Positions 18,063-59,539 of a DNA stretch of 64,000 bases are shown piece by piece; within the stretch, counting starts at the first letter, position 1; every line of letters begins with the position of its first letter. The stretch is from IMG/VR virus record IMGVR_UViG_2703719303_000002, positions 39,354-103,353 of that record; one strand, given 5' to 3'. This stretch comes from a virus (taxonomy: Duplodnaviria > Caudoviricetes). Both the position numbers and the translations under genes were made by a program. The notes beneath the pieces are model-generated. The model was not told the DNA's origin and ran no database searches. It saw nothing but the letters and a program-made list of their open reading frames with translations.

Positions 18063-18317
18063 AATAATAACCTCCATTTTTATTTTAATAATATATGTAT
18101 ATATTTATACCCCTTAAGATCATCTTTTTTACAAAAAAGCAATTGCGGAATACGGGGGATTTTGTATCCCACAATTTAAGTTGTTTTAATTTTGAGTTTT
18201 TATAAACTCTATGAAGTATATAAAATTAATTATATACTTCAATACAATTTATAAACGTTCTTCTCTATCTCATTATTTTTGCTGATTTTAGATACTATAT
18301 AAAAATACCCAAAATAA

Positions 18318-18344
18318 AAAGAATAGATTTTAAATCTATTCTTA
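18318..18344 (-). terminator. Intrinsic terminator of the 51-aa mini gene
   Basis: AAGAATAGATTT/AAATCTATTCTT stem followed by a T-run on the minus strand. Confidence 0.65.
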
Positions 18345-18349
18345 AGAAT

Positions 18350-18505
18350 TTATAAAGCTTTTAACTTATTAAATTTACTCTCATGTTCGTTTACTTTTTC
18401 ATCAATAGCATCTAATTTCTTATCAATATTATCTAGCTTCTCTACAATATTTTCATACATACCTTGTAGTAAACTTAGAAGTTTGTTATATTGTTCATTT
18501 TCCAT
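18350..18505 (-). CDS. 51-aa coiled-coil mini protein (MENEQYNKLL...VNEHESKFNKLKAL)
   Basis: GAGGGTG RBS, TATAAT at 18530-18535, own terminator; below the ORF-track cutoff. Confidence 0.72.
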   Translation of the reverse strand: MENEQYNKLLSLLQGMYENIVEKLDNIDKKLDAIDEKVNEHESKFNKLKAL

Positions 18506-19291
18506 TTTTAACACCCTCTTTACTTATGTATTATATCATAAAATATAAATATCTTTTATATTCTAATTTAAAAATACACCTGTTAATATATTCTTAAATT
18601 AGAATATAAGACTATAAAAATGCACACACTTACAGCATGATTTTACAAATATAATATCAATTACTTTAAACTTATTTTTATTTACACAATAAAATATAAG
18701 GTAATATATAATTATTTAGATGTCATTTTTATAATCTTATAATAGTGTATTAGTTTAATTTTAAAAATATTTTTCATTCTAGTAATTAAAGAACATGGAT
18801 ATATAAGGACTATATATATTCTTTTATGAATTGTTTTGTCATAGTTTTTTAAAATTAAAAATATAGAAAATAACATTTTAACAATTGAAAATTTACAAAC
18901 AACGATAGAATAAGTAATTGAACCAATAGAGTTATAAAACGGTCGTTGTAATAAATCGTGCATTCCTTTCACCCTTCCAACCTATTTTCCAAGGTGTTTT
19001 CTTATGCTAGTGTTATACACTTTTAAATATCTATGACCATTATCAAATAATAATCGCCACGATATAGCATAGTATAAGTAGCCTATATGAAGCATAGTAA
19101 TATACTTATTTTTCAAAGTGCGTTATGACCTGATGAAATAATCGAGCCTTACAATTTAATTAGTCCGTAATTTGATGTAAATAATTGTATGCTACCATTG
19201 TATTACTGTATAGAATTAACTATTATTTTATGTTATTGTTATATGCTTACTGTTGTAAGTCGTTTAAGTTGTTTCCCTCAAGCACATGTAT

Positions 19292-20481: not shown

Positions 20482-21468
20482 ACGAATATATCTAATTTAT
20501 ATGAAGGTCAACAACTAAAATCTTATAAAGCCCTTTGTAATACTATAGATGAAAAAATAAAGAGTGGTTGTAGTAAAAAAGCTCAATTGAAGCAATTAGA
20601 ATCTCTATGTTCTTATCATAAAGATGGGAACTCTTTTATTATTGATAAAATTTATTGTCATAAAAAAAGTCTATCTGATAATAGACACAATGGTAATAAT
20701 TCTGTTTATAATGATAAACTACAATTGTTAATAACTTGTTTACTTGCTGGAACTGATGATGGAACTTTGCTGATTCCTATTAGTAAGCTGTTACAACAAC
20801 TTAAAATGATAAATAAAGATTATATATATTTTAAAAATGCAAAAAAAGAATTATCAAAAGAAATGAAAATAAATCAAGCATATATCGAAGATTTTTATAA
20901 ATATAGTTATCAAATGCTAAAAAATGCTTTAAATAAATCTTTAGAATCTTTAGAAAAACGTAAACTTATCTTCTACTCTAAAGAAATACTTATATGTTAT
21001 CTTGATGAAAACAATACATGTAAATATAGGTTAGCAACTGATATTGAAATTAAAGAAATATTAAGTGCAGAAAAAAACACTTTAGAAGAAATGAATTGTA
21101 AATCTGTTTTAGATGTATTCTTAAAAAAACAAATAGGAATATTTAATTTAAAAGTAATAAATAAGCTAAAATTCGATCTTGAAAATACAGAATACTATTT
21201 TTCTATATACAAAATAATTAGTAATAAACATCATATAATACAAGCCTTAGAAGAAGATAAACGAGAAGAAGTTGAGAAAAGTCTAAATTTAATAATTCAA
21301 GAAAGAATAGAAAAAAACACTAAGGTTAGACGTAACAAGATTTTAAAACAGAGAAATAATGAATGGGGAACTCAAATTTTGCCCATCTACCAAGAAATAA
21401 AAGAATCTGAAGAGTATATTGAAAATACTATAAAGTTAATACAAAAGCTTATAAAGCTTAATAAATAA
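20482..21468 (+). CDS. Putative DNA-binding/replication-initiator-like phage protein; apparent ACG start
   Basis: Frame open from ACG 8 nt after AAGGAG; N-terminus NISNLYEGQQLKSYKALC...KSGCSKKAQLKQL looks like coding sequence; function inferred from position. Confidence 0.7.
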   Translation, partial: TNISNLYEGQQLKSYKALCNTIDEKIKSGCSKKAQLKQLESLCSYHKDGNSFIIDKIYCHKKSLSDNRHNGNNSVYNDKLQLLITCLLAGTDDGTLLIPISKLLQQLKMINKDYIYFKNAKKELSKEMKINQAYIEDFYKYSYQMLKNALNKSLESLEKRKLIFYSKEILICYLDENNTCKYRLATDIEIKEILSAEKNTLEEMNCKSVLDVFLKKQIGIFNLKVINKLKFDLENTEYYFSIYKIISNKHHIIQALEEDKREEVEKSLNLIIQERIEKNTKVRRNKILKQRNNEWGTQILPIYQEIKESEEYIENTIKLIQKLIKLNK

Positions 21469-21629
21469 TAAAGAATATGAATTTTATTAATTATCTTAAA
21501 TAATTAACTTTTATTCTTTTTTCTTTGAACCATCTCTTTGTATTTCCAGCAAAGCTGATAAATCCAAAGACCTTCGCCAAAGAAAAAGAACCAAAAAAGA
21601 AAGCTCCTTATATTGTTTTCTTTTATATT

Positions 21630-21751
21630 AAATAAAAGTTGGCTATTTAAAGATACCTATAATAAATAAATATATATTATATAAATATAGATATTTTTAA
21701 ATAGCCAACTTTTATTTTTTAGAATACTATTAGCTGATTTTAAATAGCCAA
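21630..21751. repeat. 22-bp perfect inverted repeat around a 44-bp AT-rich spacer, plus a third partial copy
   Basis: AAATAAAAGTTGGCTATTTAAA 21630-21651 / 21696-21717; TTTTAAATAGCCAA 21738-21751. Confidence 0.85.
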
Positions 21752-21767
21752 GAAAGGATATGATATT

Positions 21768-23948
21768 TTGAATAATGATAAGCAGCATTATACTTTTACG
21801 ATAATACCTATTAGGAAATTATTCTACAATGATGCAAACAATTTTGGTATATATACATGTACCATAGAAGACAAACAGGATGTTTTTAATCCTAAAAATA
21901 CCGTTATAAGCGGTACTATGCCATCTTTAGAATTAGGCAAAGCTTATAAAGTTATGGGGTTTGAATTTATTCATAAAAAATATGGACAGCAATTACAGAT
22001 AGAAAATGTTGAAATTAAAAAATTAAACTCTTCAGCAGATGAAAGGAATTTTTTAAAGAATATAGTTACTCTAAATCAATATCAAGAGATTATAAAAATT
22101 TATAAGTCTCCTATAACTGCTATAACTTCTGGAACTTTTAATATAAGTAAAGTGAAAGGTATTAAAGAAAAATATTTTGAAGTTTTAAAGAAAAAAATAA
22201 TAAAAAATTTAGAATACATGAATTTTTATTCTGAATTTACAAAAATAGGTTTTAATTTTAATCAAATGAAAAAAATTATAGATTTTTATAAGGGCGGAGA
22301 ATTATCTTTACAAATAATTAATAAGAATCCTTACAAGTTGTATATGGATATAAAAGGCTTTGGATTTAAAACTGTAGATAGTATAGCTTTAAGTATGGGT
22401 ATTGAACCTGATAGTAATTTTCGAACTAAAGCAGCTATATTATATTGTTTAGAACAGAAAGAGCAGAATGGCGACACTTATGCTTTTATAGAAGATATTC
22501 ATCAGCAAGTTGAAAAGCTACTTAATATTAAAATAAATGATATAAAAAACTATTTGGATAAAGAATATTATTATTTTGATGTTTTAAGATTAGCAAAAAG
22601 AACAACTTGGGAAACAGAAAAGGACATTTCAGTAAGATTAAAAGAAAAAATAAATAATTCGCAAAAACTTTTTACGAATAATGTTATACATTTGATTCCT
22701 GAAATAGAACGAATTTTAAGAATAAAGTATGATGATAAGCAAAAAGAACTTTTTTATAAAATAAATGAAAATAATATATTAGTATTAACTGGGTTTGCTG
22801 GTACAGGAAAATCTAGTGTATTAAATGGATTACTAAATTTATTTGATAAAAAAAATATAACATATAAGCTAATGAGTCCAACTGCAAAGGCAGCAAAAAG
22901 AATGGAAGAATGCACAGGTAAAAAAGCTAGTACAATTCATAGAGCATTAGGTTTAGCAGAAGGAAAATTTTTAGTAAATGAAAAAAATCCCTTTGCCGAA
23001 GATGTGATTATAATAGATGAGACAAGTATGGTTGACATATATTTATTCTTAGCGGTTTTAAAAGGTATAAAGAATACAACAAAACTTTTATGTTTAGGCG
23101 ATTATGGACAATTAGAAAGCATATCAGCAGGAAATGTATTATTTGACATGATTCAAGGAGGAATTCCATGTGTAAAATTAGAAAAAATTTTTAGACAAAA
23201 GGAGGATAGTTCTTTATTAAATGTAATTACAAATATAAGGAATGGAGATAATCCTTTAAAAAATACTCACAAAACTTATTTAGAATTAGGACGAGACTGT
23301 AAATTTTGGTTGGGTAAAAAAGAACAAACTTTATCAAGAGTTTTACTTTGCTATAAAGAATGTTTAAAACATTTTTCAAGGGAGGATATAATGGTTTTAT
23401 GTCCAATGAAAAAAGGAAATTCAGGTGTAAATAAATTAAATCAAGAACTACAAAAAATAGCAAATTCTCAAAATACTGAGGAACTAAAATTAAAAGATTG
23501 TGCATACAAAAAAGAAGACTTGGTTATGCATATAAAAAATGATTATAATGCAAATATATTTAGTGAAGATTGCAAAGATACAATAGCTAAAGGTATTTTT
23601 AATGGGGATGCTGGTAAAATAGAAAAAATAGATTTAGAAAACCAAAAATTATACGTGTCTTATGATTCAGGTATTGTAGAATATGATAATTCTAATCTAA
23701 ATGAATTAATGTTATCTTACGCATTGACTATTCACAAAGTACAAGGATCTCAATCTAAAGTTGTAATAGTAGCCTTAGATATGTCTCATTATAAAATGTT
23801 AAAAAGAAGTCTATTATATACCGCTGCTTCAAGATGTGTAGAATTATTAATTTTTATATGTGATCCAAAAGCATTTAGTATTGCACTAAATAATAATCAA
23901 GTTACACACAAAAACACTTTTTTAGGAGAACTTTTGAAAATAAGTTGA
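21768..23948 (+). CDS. RecD2-like SF1B helicase
   Basis: HhH motifs (GFGFKTVDSIA), GFAGTGKS, IIDETSM, GDYGQL, YALTIHKVQGSQ, LYTAASR. Confidence 0.92.
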   Translation: MNNDKQHYTFTIIPIRKLFYNDANNFGIYTCTIEDKQDVFNPKNTVISGTMPSLELGKAYKVMGFEFIHKKYGQQLQIENVEIKKLNSSADERNFLKNIVTLNQYQEIIKIYKSPITAITSGTFNISKVKGIKEKYFEVLKKKIIKNLEYMNFYSEFTKIGFNFNQMKKIIDFYKGGELSLQIINKNPYKLYMDIKGFGFKTVDSIALSMGIEPDSNFRTKAAILYCLEQKEQNGDTYAFIEDIHQQVEKLLNIKINDIKNYLDKEYYYFDVLRLAKRTTWETEKDISVRLKEKINNSQKLFTNNVIHLIPEIERILRIKYDDKQKELFYKINENNILVLTGFAGTGKSSVLNGLLNLFDKKNITYKLMSPTAKAAKRMEECTGKKASTIHRALGLAEGKFLVNEKNPFAEDVIIIDETSMVDIYLFLAVLKGIKNTTKLLCLGDYGQLESISAGNVLFDMIQGGIPCVKLEKIFRQKEDSSLLNVITNIRNGDNPLKNTHKTYLELGRDCKFWLGKKEQTLSRVLLCYKECLKHFSREDIMVLCPMKKGNSGVNKLNQELQKIANSQNTEELKLKDCAYKKEDLVMHIKNDYNANIFSEDCKDTIAKGIFNGDAGKIEKIDLENQKLYVSYDSGIVEYDNSNLNELMLSYALTIHKVQGSQSKVVIVALDMSHYKMLKRSLLYTAASRCVELLIFICDPKAFSIALNNNQVTHKNTFLGELLKIS

Positions 23949-26376: not shown

Positions 26377-26418
26377 TTTTGGATAAATGACTTGTATCAT
26401 TATGTATGGAGGGATTTA

Positions 26419-28854
26419 ATGAAAAATATGTTTGATGTAACTAAAGGTTGTTATATAAACTCCCTCCAAGCTTCTTTAGTCATGAATCATATGGAGTTTG
26501 GAAAGGATATATATACAAAAAAATATCTAGCTTCTCTTGATTATAGTCTAGAACTTATATATCTATACAACATATATAATAAATCGGTAAAGATACTAGA
26601 TAGGCAAGTTTCTGATGTTATTATAGATATAAAGTTTTCTAGGAATCAAAAGGATAGTAATAATAATGTCATTAGAAATAAACGACAGCTAAGAAAAGAA
26701 TTGTATGAAAATGGTTTCGTTCTTAATGGAGTAAAGTATATACGGTATAAAAGAACTACTGCAAAATCTCGAAAAGGACATTGTTTATTTATTATAGAAA
26801 AATTATATAAAAAAATGATAAATTGGAGTAGATTAAATTTACATTTTGAAGAAAATGAAATACTTGATTTGCCTTCCCTTTTTGCATATGAAAGTTTACC
26901 ACTGTCTTCAATTGAAGACATTATAGAAATTGATCCTGAGTCAATTTTGATAATAGATGATATTGAAAGTAAATTTTTCAAAAGATGTAGTGTTACAAGA
27001 TTAAATAAAGAAACTGGCTTATTACAAGCAAAAGATGAAGAAATTGAATTATTTAATAACCTGTTTGATGGACAAAGTTTAGTAGATAAGTCTATTTTTG
27101 AAAAGGCTGTTAGAAAAGATAAAGGAATGATGTTACTTAGAAAACAAATGTTTAAATCTTGTGGTTTCAATACAAACATACAGGAATTCTTTGAAGATAA
27201 TAATATTCTTTTAGTTAAAGATATGTTTGGTGTAGAACATTTAGCAAAAGATATAAAAATGATTATAACTCCATCTTCTTTAAAATTTCTTAAATTTTCA
27301 TATAAATTCTCTTCAAAAAGAGAATGCTTTGAATATTGGAAAAAACATATTTCTAATGTCTTCGGTATTGTAAAATCAGAACATAAAAGTAAATATAATA
27401 ATGGCAAAAATAAATTAGCCTACCAACATATTAACAGCTTACCTCTTAATTTCAATGATGTTCAAAATTTAGCACAAGATGAAATAAATTATGTAAAAAA
27501 ATTAAGAAATGACATTTCTGAATTCAAGAAATATTGTGGATGTTGCGAAGATAGCGGATTATTTATATGTGCTGCTCTTTCAGTAAATGATAATTTCCAA
27601 TATACAAAATTATTTAAAGATTATAGGAAATATCTAGTAAAAAATTATATAAATAATAACCTAAGATTGGGAAAAATCAAGATACAAAAAGCTGATTATT
27701 GTACAATAGTTGGAAATCCTTATGAAATGCTACAAGCAACAATAGGTAAATATAATCCAAAGAAATGTATCTTTTCTGATGGGGAAGTTTATACACCATT
27801 ATTTAAAGATAGCGAAGAAATTGTTGGTTTTAGAAATCCTCATGTTTGTTCAGGGAATGTTTTATTGGTAAAGAATAAATATGATTGGAGATTAAATAAA
27901 TATTTTAATTTCACAGAAAATATTGTTGCAGTAAATTTAATAGACTTCCCTTTGCAGGATACCCTGCAAGGATCAGATCAAGATTCTGATACGGTATTAC
28001 TAACCAATAATAAGATAATATTGAATTCAGCAAAAAAATGTTTTGGAAAGTATAATATACCAGTAAATAGAGTTGAAGCAAAAAAAAAGACAAGAAAATA
28101 TATTGTTGAAGATATTGTAGATGTAGATTGCACAATATCAGAAAATCTAATTGGACAAATAATTAATTTAAGTCAATTTTTAAATTCTTTATACTGGCAT
28201 AATAAATTTAATGGTATAAACATAAAAATGCAACAACACATTTATAATTCGATTTCTATTTTGTCTAGCATGAGCCAGATTGAAATTGACAAAGCAAAAA
28301 AATTATATGATGTTGACATGAAAAAAATGCTAAAACATATATACACTCAAAAATTTCTTATAAAAGACAAGGATACTCAAAAAATAATACGCCCTGCTTT
28401 TTTTAAATATGCTGGTCAATCTAAATCTAGTAATTTTAAATTTATGGATACCCCAATGGATTATTTAAATAAATTAATAAACGATATTCCTCGTGGAAAA
28501 CATACAAAGCTAATAAAGATAGAGGATATCTGTTGTAAAAGTATAAAAACAAGGGGGTATGCAAATACACAAATAAATTCCATAAAAAAGATTTTTGAAA
28601 AAGCTCAAAAACAAATAAATGGTGCGAGAATGAATTGTGAGAATGATAAAGAAAGTGAAAGAAAAACCAAAAATATAATAAGGTGGGTAAAAGCTGGATT
28701 AATAGAAAAAATGTCAAATAAAAATATAACTTTACCAACAATGAGAGTTATATTATTCAATTTAGATGATTTTAAAAATTACAAAATGCTTTTACTAGGT
28801 ACTTTGTTTGTAACTCATAAAAAAGTATTGCTAGAATGTCTAAAAAATGCATAA
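26419..28854 (+). CDS. yonO: YonO-like single-subunit (two-barrel, RdRP-related) DNA-dependent RNA polymerase
   Basis: RKELYENGF, YKRTTAKSRKGHCLF, DGQSL, PSSLKFLKF, FRNPH, catalytic GSDQDSD, IEIDKAKK; lies upstream of late genes as in SPbeta. Confidence 0.85.
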   Translation: MKNMFDVTKGCYINSLQASLVMNHMEFGKDIYTKKYLASLDYSLELIYLYNIYNKSVKILDRQVSDVIIDIKFSRNQKDSNNNVIRNKRQLRKELYENGFVLNGVKYIRYKRTTAKSRKGHCLFIIEKLYKKMINWSRLNLHFEENEILDLPSLFAYESLPLSSIEDIIEIDPESILIIDDIESKFFKRCSVTRLNKETGLLQAKDEEIELFNNLFDGQSLVDKSIFEKAVRKDKGMMLLRKQMFKSCGFNTNIQEFFEDNNILLVKDMFGVEHLAKDIKMIITPSSLKFLKFSYKFSSKRECFEYWKKHISNVFGIVKSEHKSKYNNGKNKLAYQHINSLPLNFNDVQNLAQDEINYVKKLRNDISEFKKYCGCCEDSGLFICAALSVNDNFQYTKLFKDYRKYLVKNYINNNLRLGKIKIQKADYCTIVGNPYEMLQATIGKYNPKKCIFSDGEVYTPLFKDSEEIVGFRNPHVCSGNVLLVKNKYDWRLNKYFNFTENIVAVNLIDFPLQDTLQGSDQDSDTVLLTNNKIILNSAKKCFGKYNIPVNRVEAKKKTRKYIVEDIVDVDCTISENLIGQIINLSQFLNSLYWHNKFNGINIKMQQHIYNSISILSSMSQIEIDKAKKLYDVDMKKMLKHIYTQKFLIKDKDTQKIIRPAFFKYAGQSKSSNFKFMDTPMDYLNKLINDIPRGKHTKLIKIEDICCKSIKTRGYANTQINSIKKIFEKAQKQINGARMNCENDKESERKTKNIIRWVKAGLIEKMSNKNITLPTMRVILFNLDDFKNYKMLLLGTLFVTHKKVLLECLKNA

Positions 28855-28919
28855 AATCATTGTAATTTTTTTTGAACACCGCATGAATAAAGGGATAAAG
28901 CTATGTTGAAAAGTGGTAT

Positions 28920-29160
28920 TATGGTAGAGATAAAGATAATTCTCTACCTGAGAGTGATTTGGAATAGATCATTTAAAAGGGGGTTTGGTCAGCCTACTGG
29001 ACATTGTAGACCAAGAAACGTGAGAGTTACTATATTGAATTTTAACTCAATAAAAGTTTCGTTTGTTCTGAAAGGGGAACGCTTAAAAAACCTTAATTTT
29101 ATTAAAATACAATAGGTCAGGAATTGCTTTTATGTTTTTTAAAGCTATTTCTCCTATTGA
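28920..29160 (+). ncRNA. Candidate structured ncRNA or late-operon leader
   Basis: Seven helices, several with G-U pairs that favour the + strand (see findings). Confidence 0.6.
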
Positions 29161-29227
29161 ATATTTTTCGACTTACGACAATTAGTATATAATATATACA
29201 TAAGTTTATTTTGGGAGGTTTTATTTT

Positions 29228-29416
29228 ATGGTAAAAAGCGAAAGAACAACAGATTTCAAAATAGAAGGCAAAGGTGAATTGACTATAACTGATACAGGTT
29301 TTGATTTTAAAGATGATAAAGGGACAAAAAATATTTCTTTCTCTAAATTAAGAGATATGTTTTCTGGTAAGAATGTTTCTTTTGTATTTAAACAACAAAG
29401 GAAAGAAACGCTTTAA
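29228..29416 (+). CDS. yonK: YonK-like protein
   Basis: 62 aa; FSGKNVSFVFKQ resembles the YonK C-terminus; syntenic. Confidence 0.7.
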   Translation: MVKSERTTDFKIEGKGELTITDTGFDFKDDKGTKNISFSKLRDMFSGKNVSFVFKQQRKETL

Positions 29417-38492: not shown

Positions 38493-38963
38493 ATGGCGAA
38501 TACTGAAAAAAAAATAAAAGTAAAAAATTCCACAAAGCATGATGTTGGAATTAAGTTTTTAGATGGAATTAGAAGTATGAATATAAAACCTAATGTAGTT
38601 GTCTCTCTAAAGGAAGAAGATCTCGATTATCTTAATGCTGTATCAACTATATTTTTAGGCAAAAGTTTAGAAATTTTAGATAAAGATAAAAAAAATGAGA
38701 TCTTTGGAGATAATACAAACCAGAAAATGTCTCTATCTCCAGTAGAAATAAAAAAGATATTTGATATGTCTCTTACTGATATGAAAAAAGAATTAGATAA
38801 TATTACAGAAGATGAATTAAAGTTTACTATATGGGATACAGCAAAAGAAGTTGTAGAAAATTTAACTGCTAGTAAAATAAAATATTTGTCAACTTTCTGT
38901 AACAGAGATGTTGAGGAATTAAATATTTCATCTAAAAATAATTCTGCTAAAGAAGAGAAATAA
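38493..38963 (+). CDS. Head-associated hypothetical protein (YonA position)
   Basis: AAGGAG RBS; synteny. Confidence 0.75.
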   Translation: MANTEKKIKVKNSTKHDVGIKFLDGIRSMNIKPNVVVSLKEEDLDYLNAVSTIFLGKSLEILDKDKKNEIFGDNTNQKMSLSPVEIKKIFDMSLTDMKKELDNITEDELKFTIWDTAKEVVENLTASKIKYLSTFCNRDVEELNISSKNNSAKEEK

Positions 38964-59275: not shown

Positions 59276-59539
59276 ATGAGTGAAGATTATGATTCAAAAC
59301 TTTGTGAAAATAAGCATCAAAACATTGATAAAAAAGTAAACGAACATGAGAGTAGATTAAATAATCATTCAGAAAGATTAGATAAACTCGAGCAATATAA
59401 ATCTAAAAGTGAGGAAAAGATAGACAATTTATGTGTAGATTTAAGAAATCTTACAAGTACGCTAAGATGGGGCATAGGTATTTTAGCTGGTGGAATAATA
59501 AGTTTTTTTATCTACTTATTACAATTACACGTAAAATAA
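59276..59539 (+). CDS. Hemolysin XhlA-family (holin-like) protein
   Basis: HESRLNNHSERLDKLEQ...IDNLC...C-terminal TM. Confidence 0.85.
   Translation: MSEDYDSKLCENKHQNIDKKVNEHESRLNNHSERLDKLEQYKSKSEEKIDNLCVDLRNLTSTLRWGIGILAGGIISFFIYLLQLHVK

Follow-up and report, generated by a model that had tools for sequence, protein, structure and literature searches.

YonO-type enzymes are minimal single-chain relatives of cellular RNA polymerases, and the T7-class and N4 RNA polymerase (RNAP) families are unrelated to them. In lambda, P_R'-t_R' gives a 194-nt late leader transcript, called '6S', that is read through under Q antitermination, and in HK022 the put RNA is a cis-acting antitermination RNA of two stem–loops that acts on the host multi-subunit RNAP.

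The described system closest to the locus studied here is that of SPbeta. The YonO-dependent late transcript of SPbeta starts in the gap between yonO and yonK, ahead of an 'unannotated non-coding RNA' (Forrest et al. 2017, PMC5467207), with a published start site at 168 coordinate 2225998. The SPbeta late genes depend on YonO and not on a host promoter (PMC5467207), and YonO is without the flap domain that is used for hairpin-dependent pausing and termination (Forrest et al., PMC5467207). The pac site of SPbeta lies outside the yonO-yonK gap, upstream of yonP, between yonR and yonP.

In the SPBc2 record, the features follow each other in the order yonO, yonN, a 1.68-kb gap, yonK and yonJ, with yonG and yonF further on, and the non-coding RNA of the leader is conserved among SPbeta-like phages. 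We mapped the published P_YonO primer-extension primers on this record, one exactly and the other by eye with an indel, and the start is bracketed only to ~8551–8365 of the SPBc2 locus (L164). In an alignment of SPbeta-like phages (A3; L164 ~8610–8330, − strand), the block around TCATTTATGAGGGTGCGAGG and the next ~100 nt are nearly invariant, the 130 nt before the block diverge among phages that are 72–100% identical, the block falls between the two primers, and a second partial copy of the block (TCATTTATGAAGG) lies ~155 nt upstream. The yonN-yonK region also holds a DUF3800-VIII RNA (RF03075; 47.5 bits vs a gathering score of 40.2) at L164 7410–7475 on the − strand (~59409–59474 of the SPBc2 record), ~250 nt upstream of yonK and within the YonO-dependent leader.

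The gap between the polymerase gene and the late genes

The DNA analysed here, referred to as the window, is a stretch of 64,000 nt from a 103-kb IMG/VR provirus record, and the provirus is a prophage of Clostridium acetobutylicum. An exact-protein look-up placed an identical protein copy on the chromosome of C. acetobutylicum EA 2018 (CP002118.1, at ~1.30 Mb), and three more contigs carry the same stretch with 100% identity over 2.6–3.0 kb. A sequence-only reading of the window had singled out positions 28920–29160 as one highly structured RNA of ~240 nt, of a family that it did not recognize, lying directly downstream of an RNAP gene and at the head of the late operon. As regards the surrounding genes, that reading was accurate. 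The features of the locus are as follows.

26392–28854, + strand: gene for a YonO-type single-subunit RNA polymerase of 820 aa (phrog_8308, E 5e-120)
28903–29115, + strand: ORF of 70 aa, a gene in the public annotation, rejected here as coding
29213–29218, + strand: ribosome-binding site GGGAGG, preceding the YonK-like gene
29228–29416, + strand: YonK-like gene of 62 aa, the first late gene, with a codon score of 0.62, like that of real genes

The RNAP gene, a yonO homolog, is the final gene of a rightward replication/early block. Its product is 21% identical to SPBc2 YonO over 464 aa in a pairwise comparison (E 2e-11), and its closest homologs among 5.8 billion proteins are only ~44% identical. 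Between its stop codon and the YonK-like gene lies a gap of 373 nt (28855–29227), which contains the 240-nt stretch. In pairwise comparisons, the 62-aa protein gives a weak co-linear match to SPBc2 YonK (E 5e-4), the exonuclease encoded after it matches YonJ (E 3e-12) and a protein of 325 aa matches YonG (E 0.01); the late block also encodes a large terminase of the T4 type. The gene order of the window is that of SPBc2 (yonO, gap, yonK, yonJ, then yonG and yonF), on the same strand, and the stretch stands ahead of the YonK-like gene, the YonJ-like exonuclease and the terminase, the position held by the P_YonO leader in SPbeta (PMC5467207). The best explanation of the gap, judging from this arrangement, appears to be that it forms the early/late junction of an SPbeta-type prophage.

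The P_YonO region of SPbeta and the window have in common the position between a YonO-type RNAP gene and a yonK/yonJ/terminase block, a single long late operon and a leader that is non-coding and structured. They differ in that the SPbeta leader measures ~1.2–1.3 kb vs ~300 nt in the window, comes after an extra gene, yonN, and a terminator directly 3' of yonO, and contains the Rfam DUF3800-VIII motif, whereas the window gives no Rfam match. Covariance model, weight matrix and pattern searches found nothing shared between the SPbeta leader and the window.

The ORF at 28903–29115 covers most of the stretch, and that it encodes a genuine protein, small and basic, is highly improbable. Public annotations list it as a gene, and it has an ATG start with a purine-rich AAGGGA 8 nt upstream, but this putative ribosome-binding site is the AAGGG block of the conserved motif described below. 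Its codon score of −0.10 per codon falls within the out-of-frame distribution (−0.21 ± 0.16) and not with the genes (0.57 ± 0.16), and its GC3 is 0.31 vs 0.17 in this phage's genes. Among 1.84 billion representatives the ORF matched only itself, tblastn gave no match in 160 related loci, and searches for PHROG and Pfam families returned no match. Because of the codon score, the GC3, the self-hit and the lack of a tblastn match, we treated the ORF as non-coding.

A conserved motif downstream of the polymerase gene

The 5' edge of the stretch falls within an element that is conserved in distant relatives and that the sequence-only reading had missed.

28873–28935, + strand: early/late junction element, candidate late promoter, located with a weight matrix built from relatives only

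We counted k-mers in the 700 nt after the RNAP stop codon of 146 non-redundant loci, where TATATGGT and ATATGGTA are found in 19–20 loci vs 2–4 in controls. Of the exact matches to the TATATGGTA-type core, 23 fall within 100 nt downstream of the RNAP stop and 7 in the 100 nt before it; other 100-nt bins have ~1 each, and the − strand has none in the bin just past the stop. The motif is ~45–60 bp long, is present on the + strand only and lies 30–150 nt downstream of the RNAP stop in relatives. When its instances are aligned, TATATG(G/A)TA is invariant and mostly precedes TA or GAG, and more conserved blocks lie up to ~45 nt upstream of the core; the conservation of this 9-mer and its spaced upstream blocks spans RNAPs that are 35–45% identical. 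When a weight matrix was scanned from −100 to +1200 nt relative to the RNAP stop, at least 39 of 148 loci scored above the 99.999th background percentile (~2 expected) and 68 above the 99.99th (~19 expected), with most matches at +33 to +150 nt.

In the window, the motif core ATTATGGTA lies at 28918–28926 (TATGGTA at 28920–26), 64 nt past the RNAP stop, with AAAGTG and AAGGG blocks upstream, and variants of the Bacillales type (..AAAGTGtcgcCATATGATAGAGG) are similar to the window's GAAAAGTGGTATTATGGTAGAGA. Scored with matrices built without the window sequence, this site takes first place both among the 127,886 positions of the window and in the 103-kb record (in the latter with 15.7 bits vs 13.4 for the runner-up); the chance of the top position landing in the expected 150-nt zone is <0.1%. 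The window copy is a divergent match, with 10.8–15.7 bits. Further matrix matches at 38828, 39987 and 60084 lie inside ORFs and were taken as chance.

The exact core is single-copy in relatives' genomes of 126–178 kb (n = 5), bar one extra copy in one of them, and matches with one mismatch in the same five genomes equal control counts. A single copy per relative genome fits one late operon. The extra copy (G054:C1:98878-98891, + strand) lies far from the RNAP gene of a 150-kb genome and could be a second late promoter. From its position, copy number and strand, both the 28920 edge of the stretch and the 5' arm of its first hairpin lie inside a conserved, single-copy, strand-specific element.

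Some loci depart from the usual spacing. In three of them (L007, L025 and L026) an extra ORF of 239–268 aa follows the RNAP gene and the motif is found 3' of this ORF, at ~+800 nt, so that it still adjoins the late genes despite the insertion; in two others (L024 and L064) an ORF of 487 aa stands between the motif and the YonK-like gene. An inverted repeat (..AAACCC, a loop of 11–14 nt, GGGTTT..) is present 20–45 nt upstream of the core in L015, L010, L003, L094 and others, and in loci of the Bacillales type a T-run comes after it and it resembles a terminator of the RNAP gene (in L094 a 12-bp stem, dG −20). The window has no counterpart to this upstream hairpin/terminator block of many relatives. 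It does have a direct repeat, AGGGATAAAGCTA / AGAGATAAAGATA at 28891–28903 / 28926–28938, identical at 11 of 13 positions and 35 nt apart, which flanks the TATGGTA core and may represent two half-sites for a regulator or have arisen by chance.

Judged by its location and strand, its copy number and the way it is conserved, the motif would most simply be the late promoter of this RNAP lineage. We found no promoter definition for YonO-type RNAPs in the literature searched. The TATATGGTA-type motif is absent from SPBc2, so its link to the mapped P_YonO start is one of position only; a conserved SPBc2 block around TCATTTATGAGGGTG, between the published primer-extension primers, bears a loose likeness to it. 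Like the promoters of T7-class RNAPs and the hairpin promoters of N4, the motif is a compact, conserved, strand-specific element that co-varies with the phage RNAP lineage and stands at the start of the genes that the RNAP is expected to read. Unlike those promoters, which occur in many copies, it is single-copy per genome, and its promoter role is putative.

Hairpins and leader

The fold predicted for the stretch is made up of the following parts.

28923–28948, + strand: H1, a perfect 8-bp stem with a 10-nt loop (dG −11.7; pair probability 0.99)
28952–28974, + strand: H2, a stem of 9–10 bp with G-U pairs (pair probability 0.93 for 28954–61/28965–72)
28977–29096, + strand: central stretch with a weakly defined multibranch fold (helix probabilities 0.37–0.78)
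29104–29168, + strand: H4, a long imperfect hairpin (29110–29159) with an A-tract/U-tract extension and a U5 run, terminator-like

All the helices named in the sequence-only reading exist, with probabilities of 0.93–0.99 for H1, H2 and H4 and of 0.37–0.78 for the multibranch helices. The arms of H1, GGTAGAGA/TCTCTACC at 28923–30/28941–48, form a perfect 8-bp inverted repeat, of which the 5' arm overlaps the conserved motif core. The stem of H4 has three parts (29110–16/29153–59, 29119–24/29147–52 and 29126–30/29141–45; probability 0.93–0.99). In the central stretch, the helices GAAAC/GTTTC, GAGTTA/TAACTC, GTTCT/GGAAC and the closing GGGGTTT/AAACCTT are present in the minimum free energy (MFE) structure, and a TTGGTC/GACCAA helix competes with this pairing; the MFE structure itself accounts for 0.17% of the ensemble. 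The GC content of the central stretch is 37% vs 25% for non-coding gaps.

What did not hold was the idea of a single highly structured domain of 240 nt. On the + strand, 28920–29160 folds with an MFE of −58.8 (z −2.87), and 2 of 200 shuffles fold equally well; the − strand gives −45.4 (z −3.05), and z is −3.4 for 28923–29168. After adjustment for GC content, the + strand ranks 10th and the − strand 91st among 797 windows of 240 nt, and since the + strand outranks the − strand after this adjustment, the G-U bias towards the + strand that the earlier reading had pointed out is real. In local scans of 56 nt, H1 and H2 together rank within the top 0.2% and H4 within the top 0.5%, and scans over the multibranch region lie at the 12th–50th percentile, which is background. 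The robust hairpins are H1, H2 and H4 only, and the central domain is thermodynamically ordinary. Nor does 28920–29160 hold the most pronounced structure in the window. With GC adjustment, the strongest folding outliers are at 21441–21840 (z −3.4 and −4.5 on the two strands) and at 18081–18800 (very AT-rich, an outlier on the − strand), both beyond 28920–29160.

These figures bear on the explanation that the fold is largely chance in an AT-rich spacer, its real parts being ordinary hairpins such as an operator-like inverted repeat and a terminator. We consider this quite unlikely. The overall z is just −2.9, ~1% of windows fold equally well and there is no comparative support, but the stretch has, within 240 nt and beside a conserved motif, two local hairpin modules that are among the strongest of the 64 kb. 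The central domain at background and the low ensemble frequency of the MFE structure likewise suit a chance fold; the strand asymmetry does not, and the long leaders of relatives are structured too.

H4 itself ends unlike what had been claimed, namely that the stretch held no terminator U-tails: it is flanked by an A-tract (29104–09) and followed by AAUAUUUUU, with U5 at 29164–68. A looser terminator scan, which asks for a stem–loop and then a U-run, calls H4 with a dG of −14.9 to −16, and a stricter rule (loop of 3–8) does not call it a terminator. From 7.7 to 38.4 kb, the looser scan finds no other hairpin of this kind on the + strand with dG ≤ −12.

The main rival to a promoter at the motif builds on this hairpin, and we regard it as unlikely. 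The stretch would be the 3' untranslated tail of the early/middle operon of the RNAP, with H4 as its terminator, H1 and H2 as 3'-end stabilizers and the motif as a regulator-binding or processing site, and the late promoter would follow H4 (29169–29212). After ~20 kb of + strand genes, H4 is the first hairpin to look like a terminator; there is none from the RNAP stop to the motif, and in the canonical order a promoter comes after a terminator. A −10-like hexamer, TATAAT, does lie downstream of H4 at 29188–93, but a promoter scan found no sigma-70-like site after H4, and the late genes of SPbeta need YonO, not a host promoter (PMC5467207). Similarly, part of the upstream element is terminator-like in relatives of the Bacillales type, as in the L094 stem (dG −20), yet an invariant 9-mer with spaced blocks across RNAPs 35–45% identical is typical of a promoter protein–DNA site.

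Leaders of relatives measure from ~50 to >500 nt, and in the window the motif core lies ~305 nt from the start codon of the YonK-like gene. Those of ≥150 nt fold with z of −0.9 to −3.3, whereas controls taken within the RNAP gene average ~0. Between the motif and the first late ORF, 7 of 23 relatives have a terminator-like hairpin of dG ≤ −12, against a background of 0.11 such hairpins per kb, and within one subfamily the terminator AGAGAGTT..ACTCTCTTTTTT is kept while its inner stem varies (alignment A4). Across these sequences a predicted order recurs: motif, structured leader, terminator-like hairpin, ribosome-binding site and small first gene. A hairpin immediately 3' of the motif was rejected as a trait of the family, with no more than 4 of 23 relatives reaching the 5th percentile or lower, and H1, H2 and the central fold are lineage-specific and unsupported by comparison. 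Elsewhere in the relatives, L071 carries a Pistol ribozyme upstream of its RNAP gene (1413–1484, 51 bits), and skipping-rope RNAs lie ~4–5 kb downstream of the RNAP gene, in the late region, of L011 (12281–12360) and L003 (11864–11949), with 55–71 bits.

The family of the RNA, which the sequence-only reading could not name, was not found in Rfam either. At gathering thresholds, Rfam 15 gave 0 matches over the whole window, with families that include 6S RNA, phi29 pRNA, riboswitches, DUF3800 motifs and ROOL/GOLLD; on 28800–29300 at E ≤ 10 there were three matches, all far sub-threshold, and no family was found in any leader of 12 related loci. ARAGORN found no tRNA or tmRNA, and the supplement of a C. 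acetobutylicum sRNA survey has no entry at the position of 28920–29160. No DNA similar to the gap was found among 50,697 phage records, its matches by nhmmer and blastn in 160 loci encoding RNAP homologs were chance matches only, and a covariance model of the central domain found nothing better than E ~1.6 in these loci and SPBc2. Repeat copies of the gap or of the H1 arm were not found elsewhere in the window. The collections contain no diverged close relative (RNAP homologs ≤44% identical), and in a database search the 62-aa YonK-like protein hit only itself. No covariation can be read for the fold of the window, because all contigs carrying the 70-aa ORF are C. acetobutylicum copies with 100% identity and the 62-aa neighbour is without a close homolog.

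The roles first suggested for the RNA included a 6S-like decoy or template and a packaging RNA, and neither gained support. 6S RNA forms one long irregular rod whose large central bubble mimics an open promoter; the fold here is a string of separate hairpins with a weak multibranch region, without such a rod, and no Rfam 6S match was found. A phi29-type pRNA was likewise rejected, with no Rfam match and a context of a large SPbeta-type prophage with a T4-type large terminase. As a packaging site the stretch has no counterpart in SPbeta, where the pac site is elsewhere, between yonR and yonP; this location upstream of yonP and the conventional terminase make a packaging role unlikely.

More broadly, the stretch may encode a discrete functional RNA of ~245 nt that acts on the phage RNAP, in cis by put-like antitermination or processivity through H1 and H2 or in trans as a regulator, or that acts in packaging; we consider this improbable. 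Two adjacent stem–loops just past the putative start and then a terminator-like hairpin would suit such an RNA, as would the z of −3.4 for 28923–29168 and the GC-enriched middle, but the fold is without the rod and central bubble that define 6S RNA, no Rfam family matches, and neither nhmmer, blastn nor the covariance model found a homolog in the 160 related loci. The leader non-coding RNA of SPbeta (PMC5467207), conserved in SPbeta-like phages and with a DUF3800-VIII motif, offers a precedent; the relatives' leaders, however, vary from ~50 to >500 nt, and for packaging a conventional large terminase is present and the SPbeta pac site lies elsewhere.

A candidate late promoter and its leader

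Whether the 240-nt stretch comprises a late promoter and a structured untranslated leader of ~245 nt that ends in a terminator-like hairpin is, in our estimation, evenly poised, with the promoter role putative. On this reading, the element at ~28873–28935 would be the promoter, or at least a key cis-regulatory site, of one long late operon, the probable template of the YonO-type RNA polymerase that the phage encodes. Transcription would start at or just after the core and give an untranslated leader that opens with H1 and H2, continues through a loosely folded, GC-richer middle and ends at H4 (~29168), 60 nt before the YonK-like gene. The 5' hairpins H1 and H2 may shield the late transcript from 5' decay, and H4 may halt read-through by the host polymerase from the replication/RNAP operon. 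Some transcripts may terminate at H4 and yield a discrete ~245-nt leader RNA in parallel to lambda P_R'-t_R', while the phage RNAP would continue into the late genes past H4 and past the internal hairpins further along the 30-kb late operon, a read-through that we propose because YonO is without a flap domain.

With lambda P_R'-t_R' the window would share a late promoter, a terminator within ~200–250 nt and the need for read-through to express a single long late operon; to our knowledge there is no sequence relationship between the two. Lambda relies on the host polymerase and the Q protein, whereas in the window a phage single-subunit two-barrel RNAP is presumed and, unlike in lambda, no Q-like factor or binding site was identified. 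HK022 put and the window both have paired stem–loops just past a promoter, a putative one in the window, and upstream of terminators. Hairpins like H1 and H2 are not conserved in the window's relatives.

Features of the locus also speak against a promoter at the motif. A promoter upstream of the sole terminator-like hairpin is unusual, the window copy of the motif is divergent and without the upstream hairpin/terminator block, and a hairpin directly after the motif is not general (4 of the 23 relatives). It is also a rather improbable extension of the promoter reading that the ~245-nt RNA is a dedicated regulatory RNA of the two-barrel single-subunit RNAP, for example through 5' stem–loops that give termination resistance in cis, in which case the YonO-type family would gain its first defined promoter in the TATATGGTA-class element.

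The 240-nt RNA alone is of modest interest, because only thermodynamics stands behind any specific fold, and of the two the conserved motif after the RNAP gene is the lead of greater value. A concrete candidate promoter for YonO-type polymerases emerges from this locus and its relatives: a single-copy, strand-specific element of ~45–60 bp with a TATATG(G/A)TA core at the early/late junction, followed in many lineages by a structured leader with a terminator-like hairpin. If the promoter reading is true, in vitro studies of YonO-type polymerases would gain a defined promoter and template and a way to check whether a flap-less polymerase ignores intrinsic terminators, and there would be an annotation rule for the starts of late operons in a large group of Firmicute prophages.
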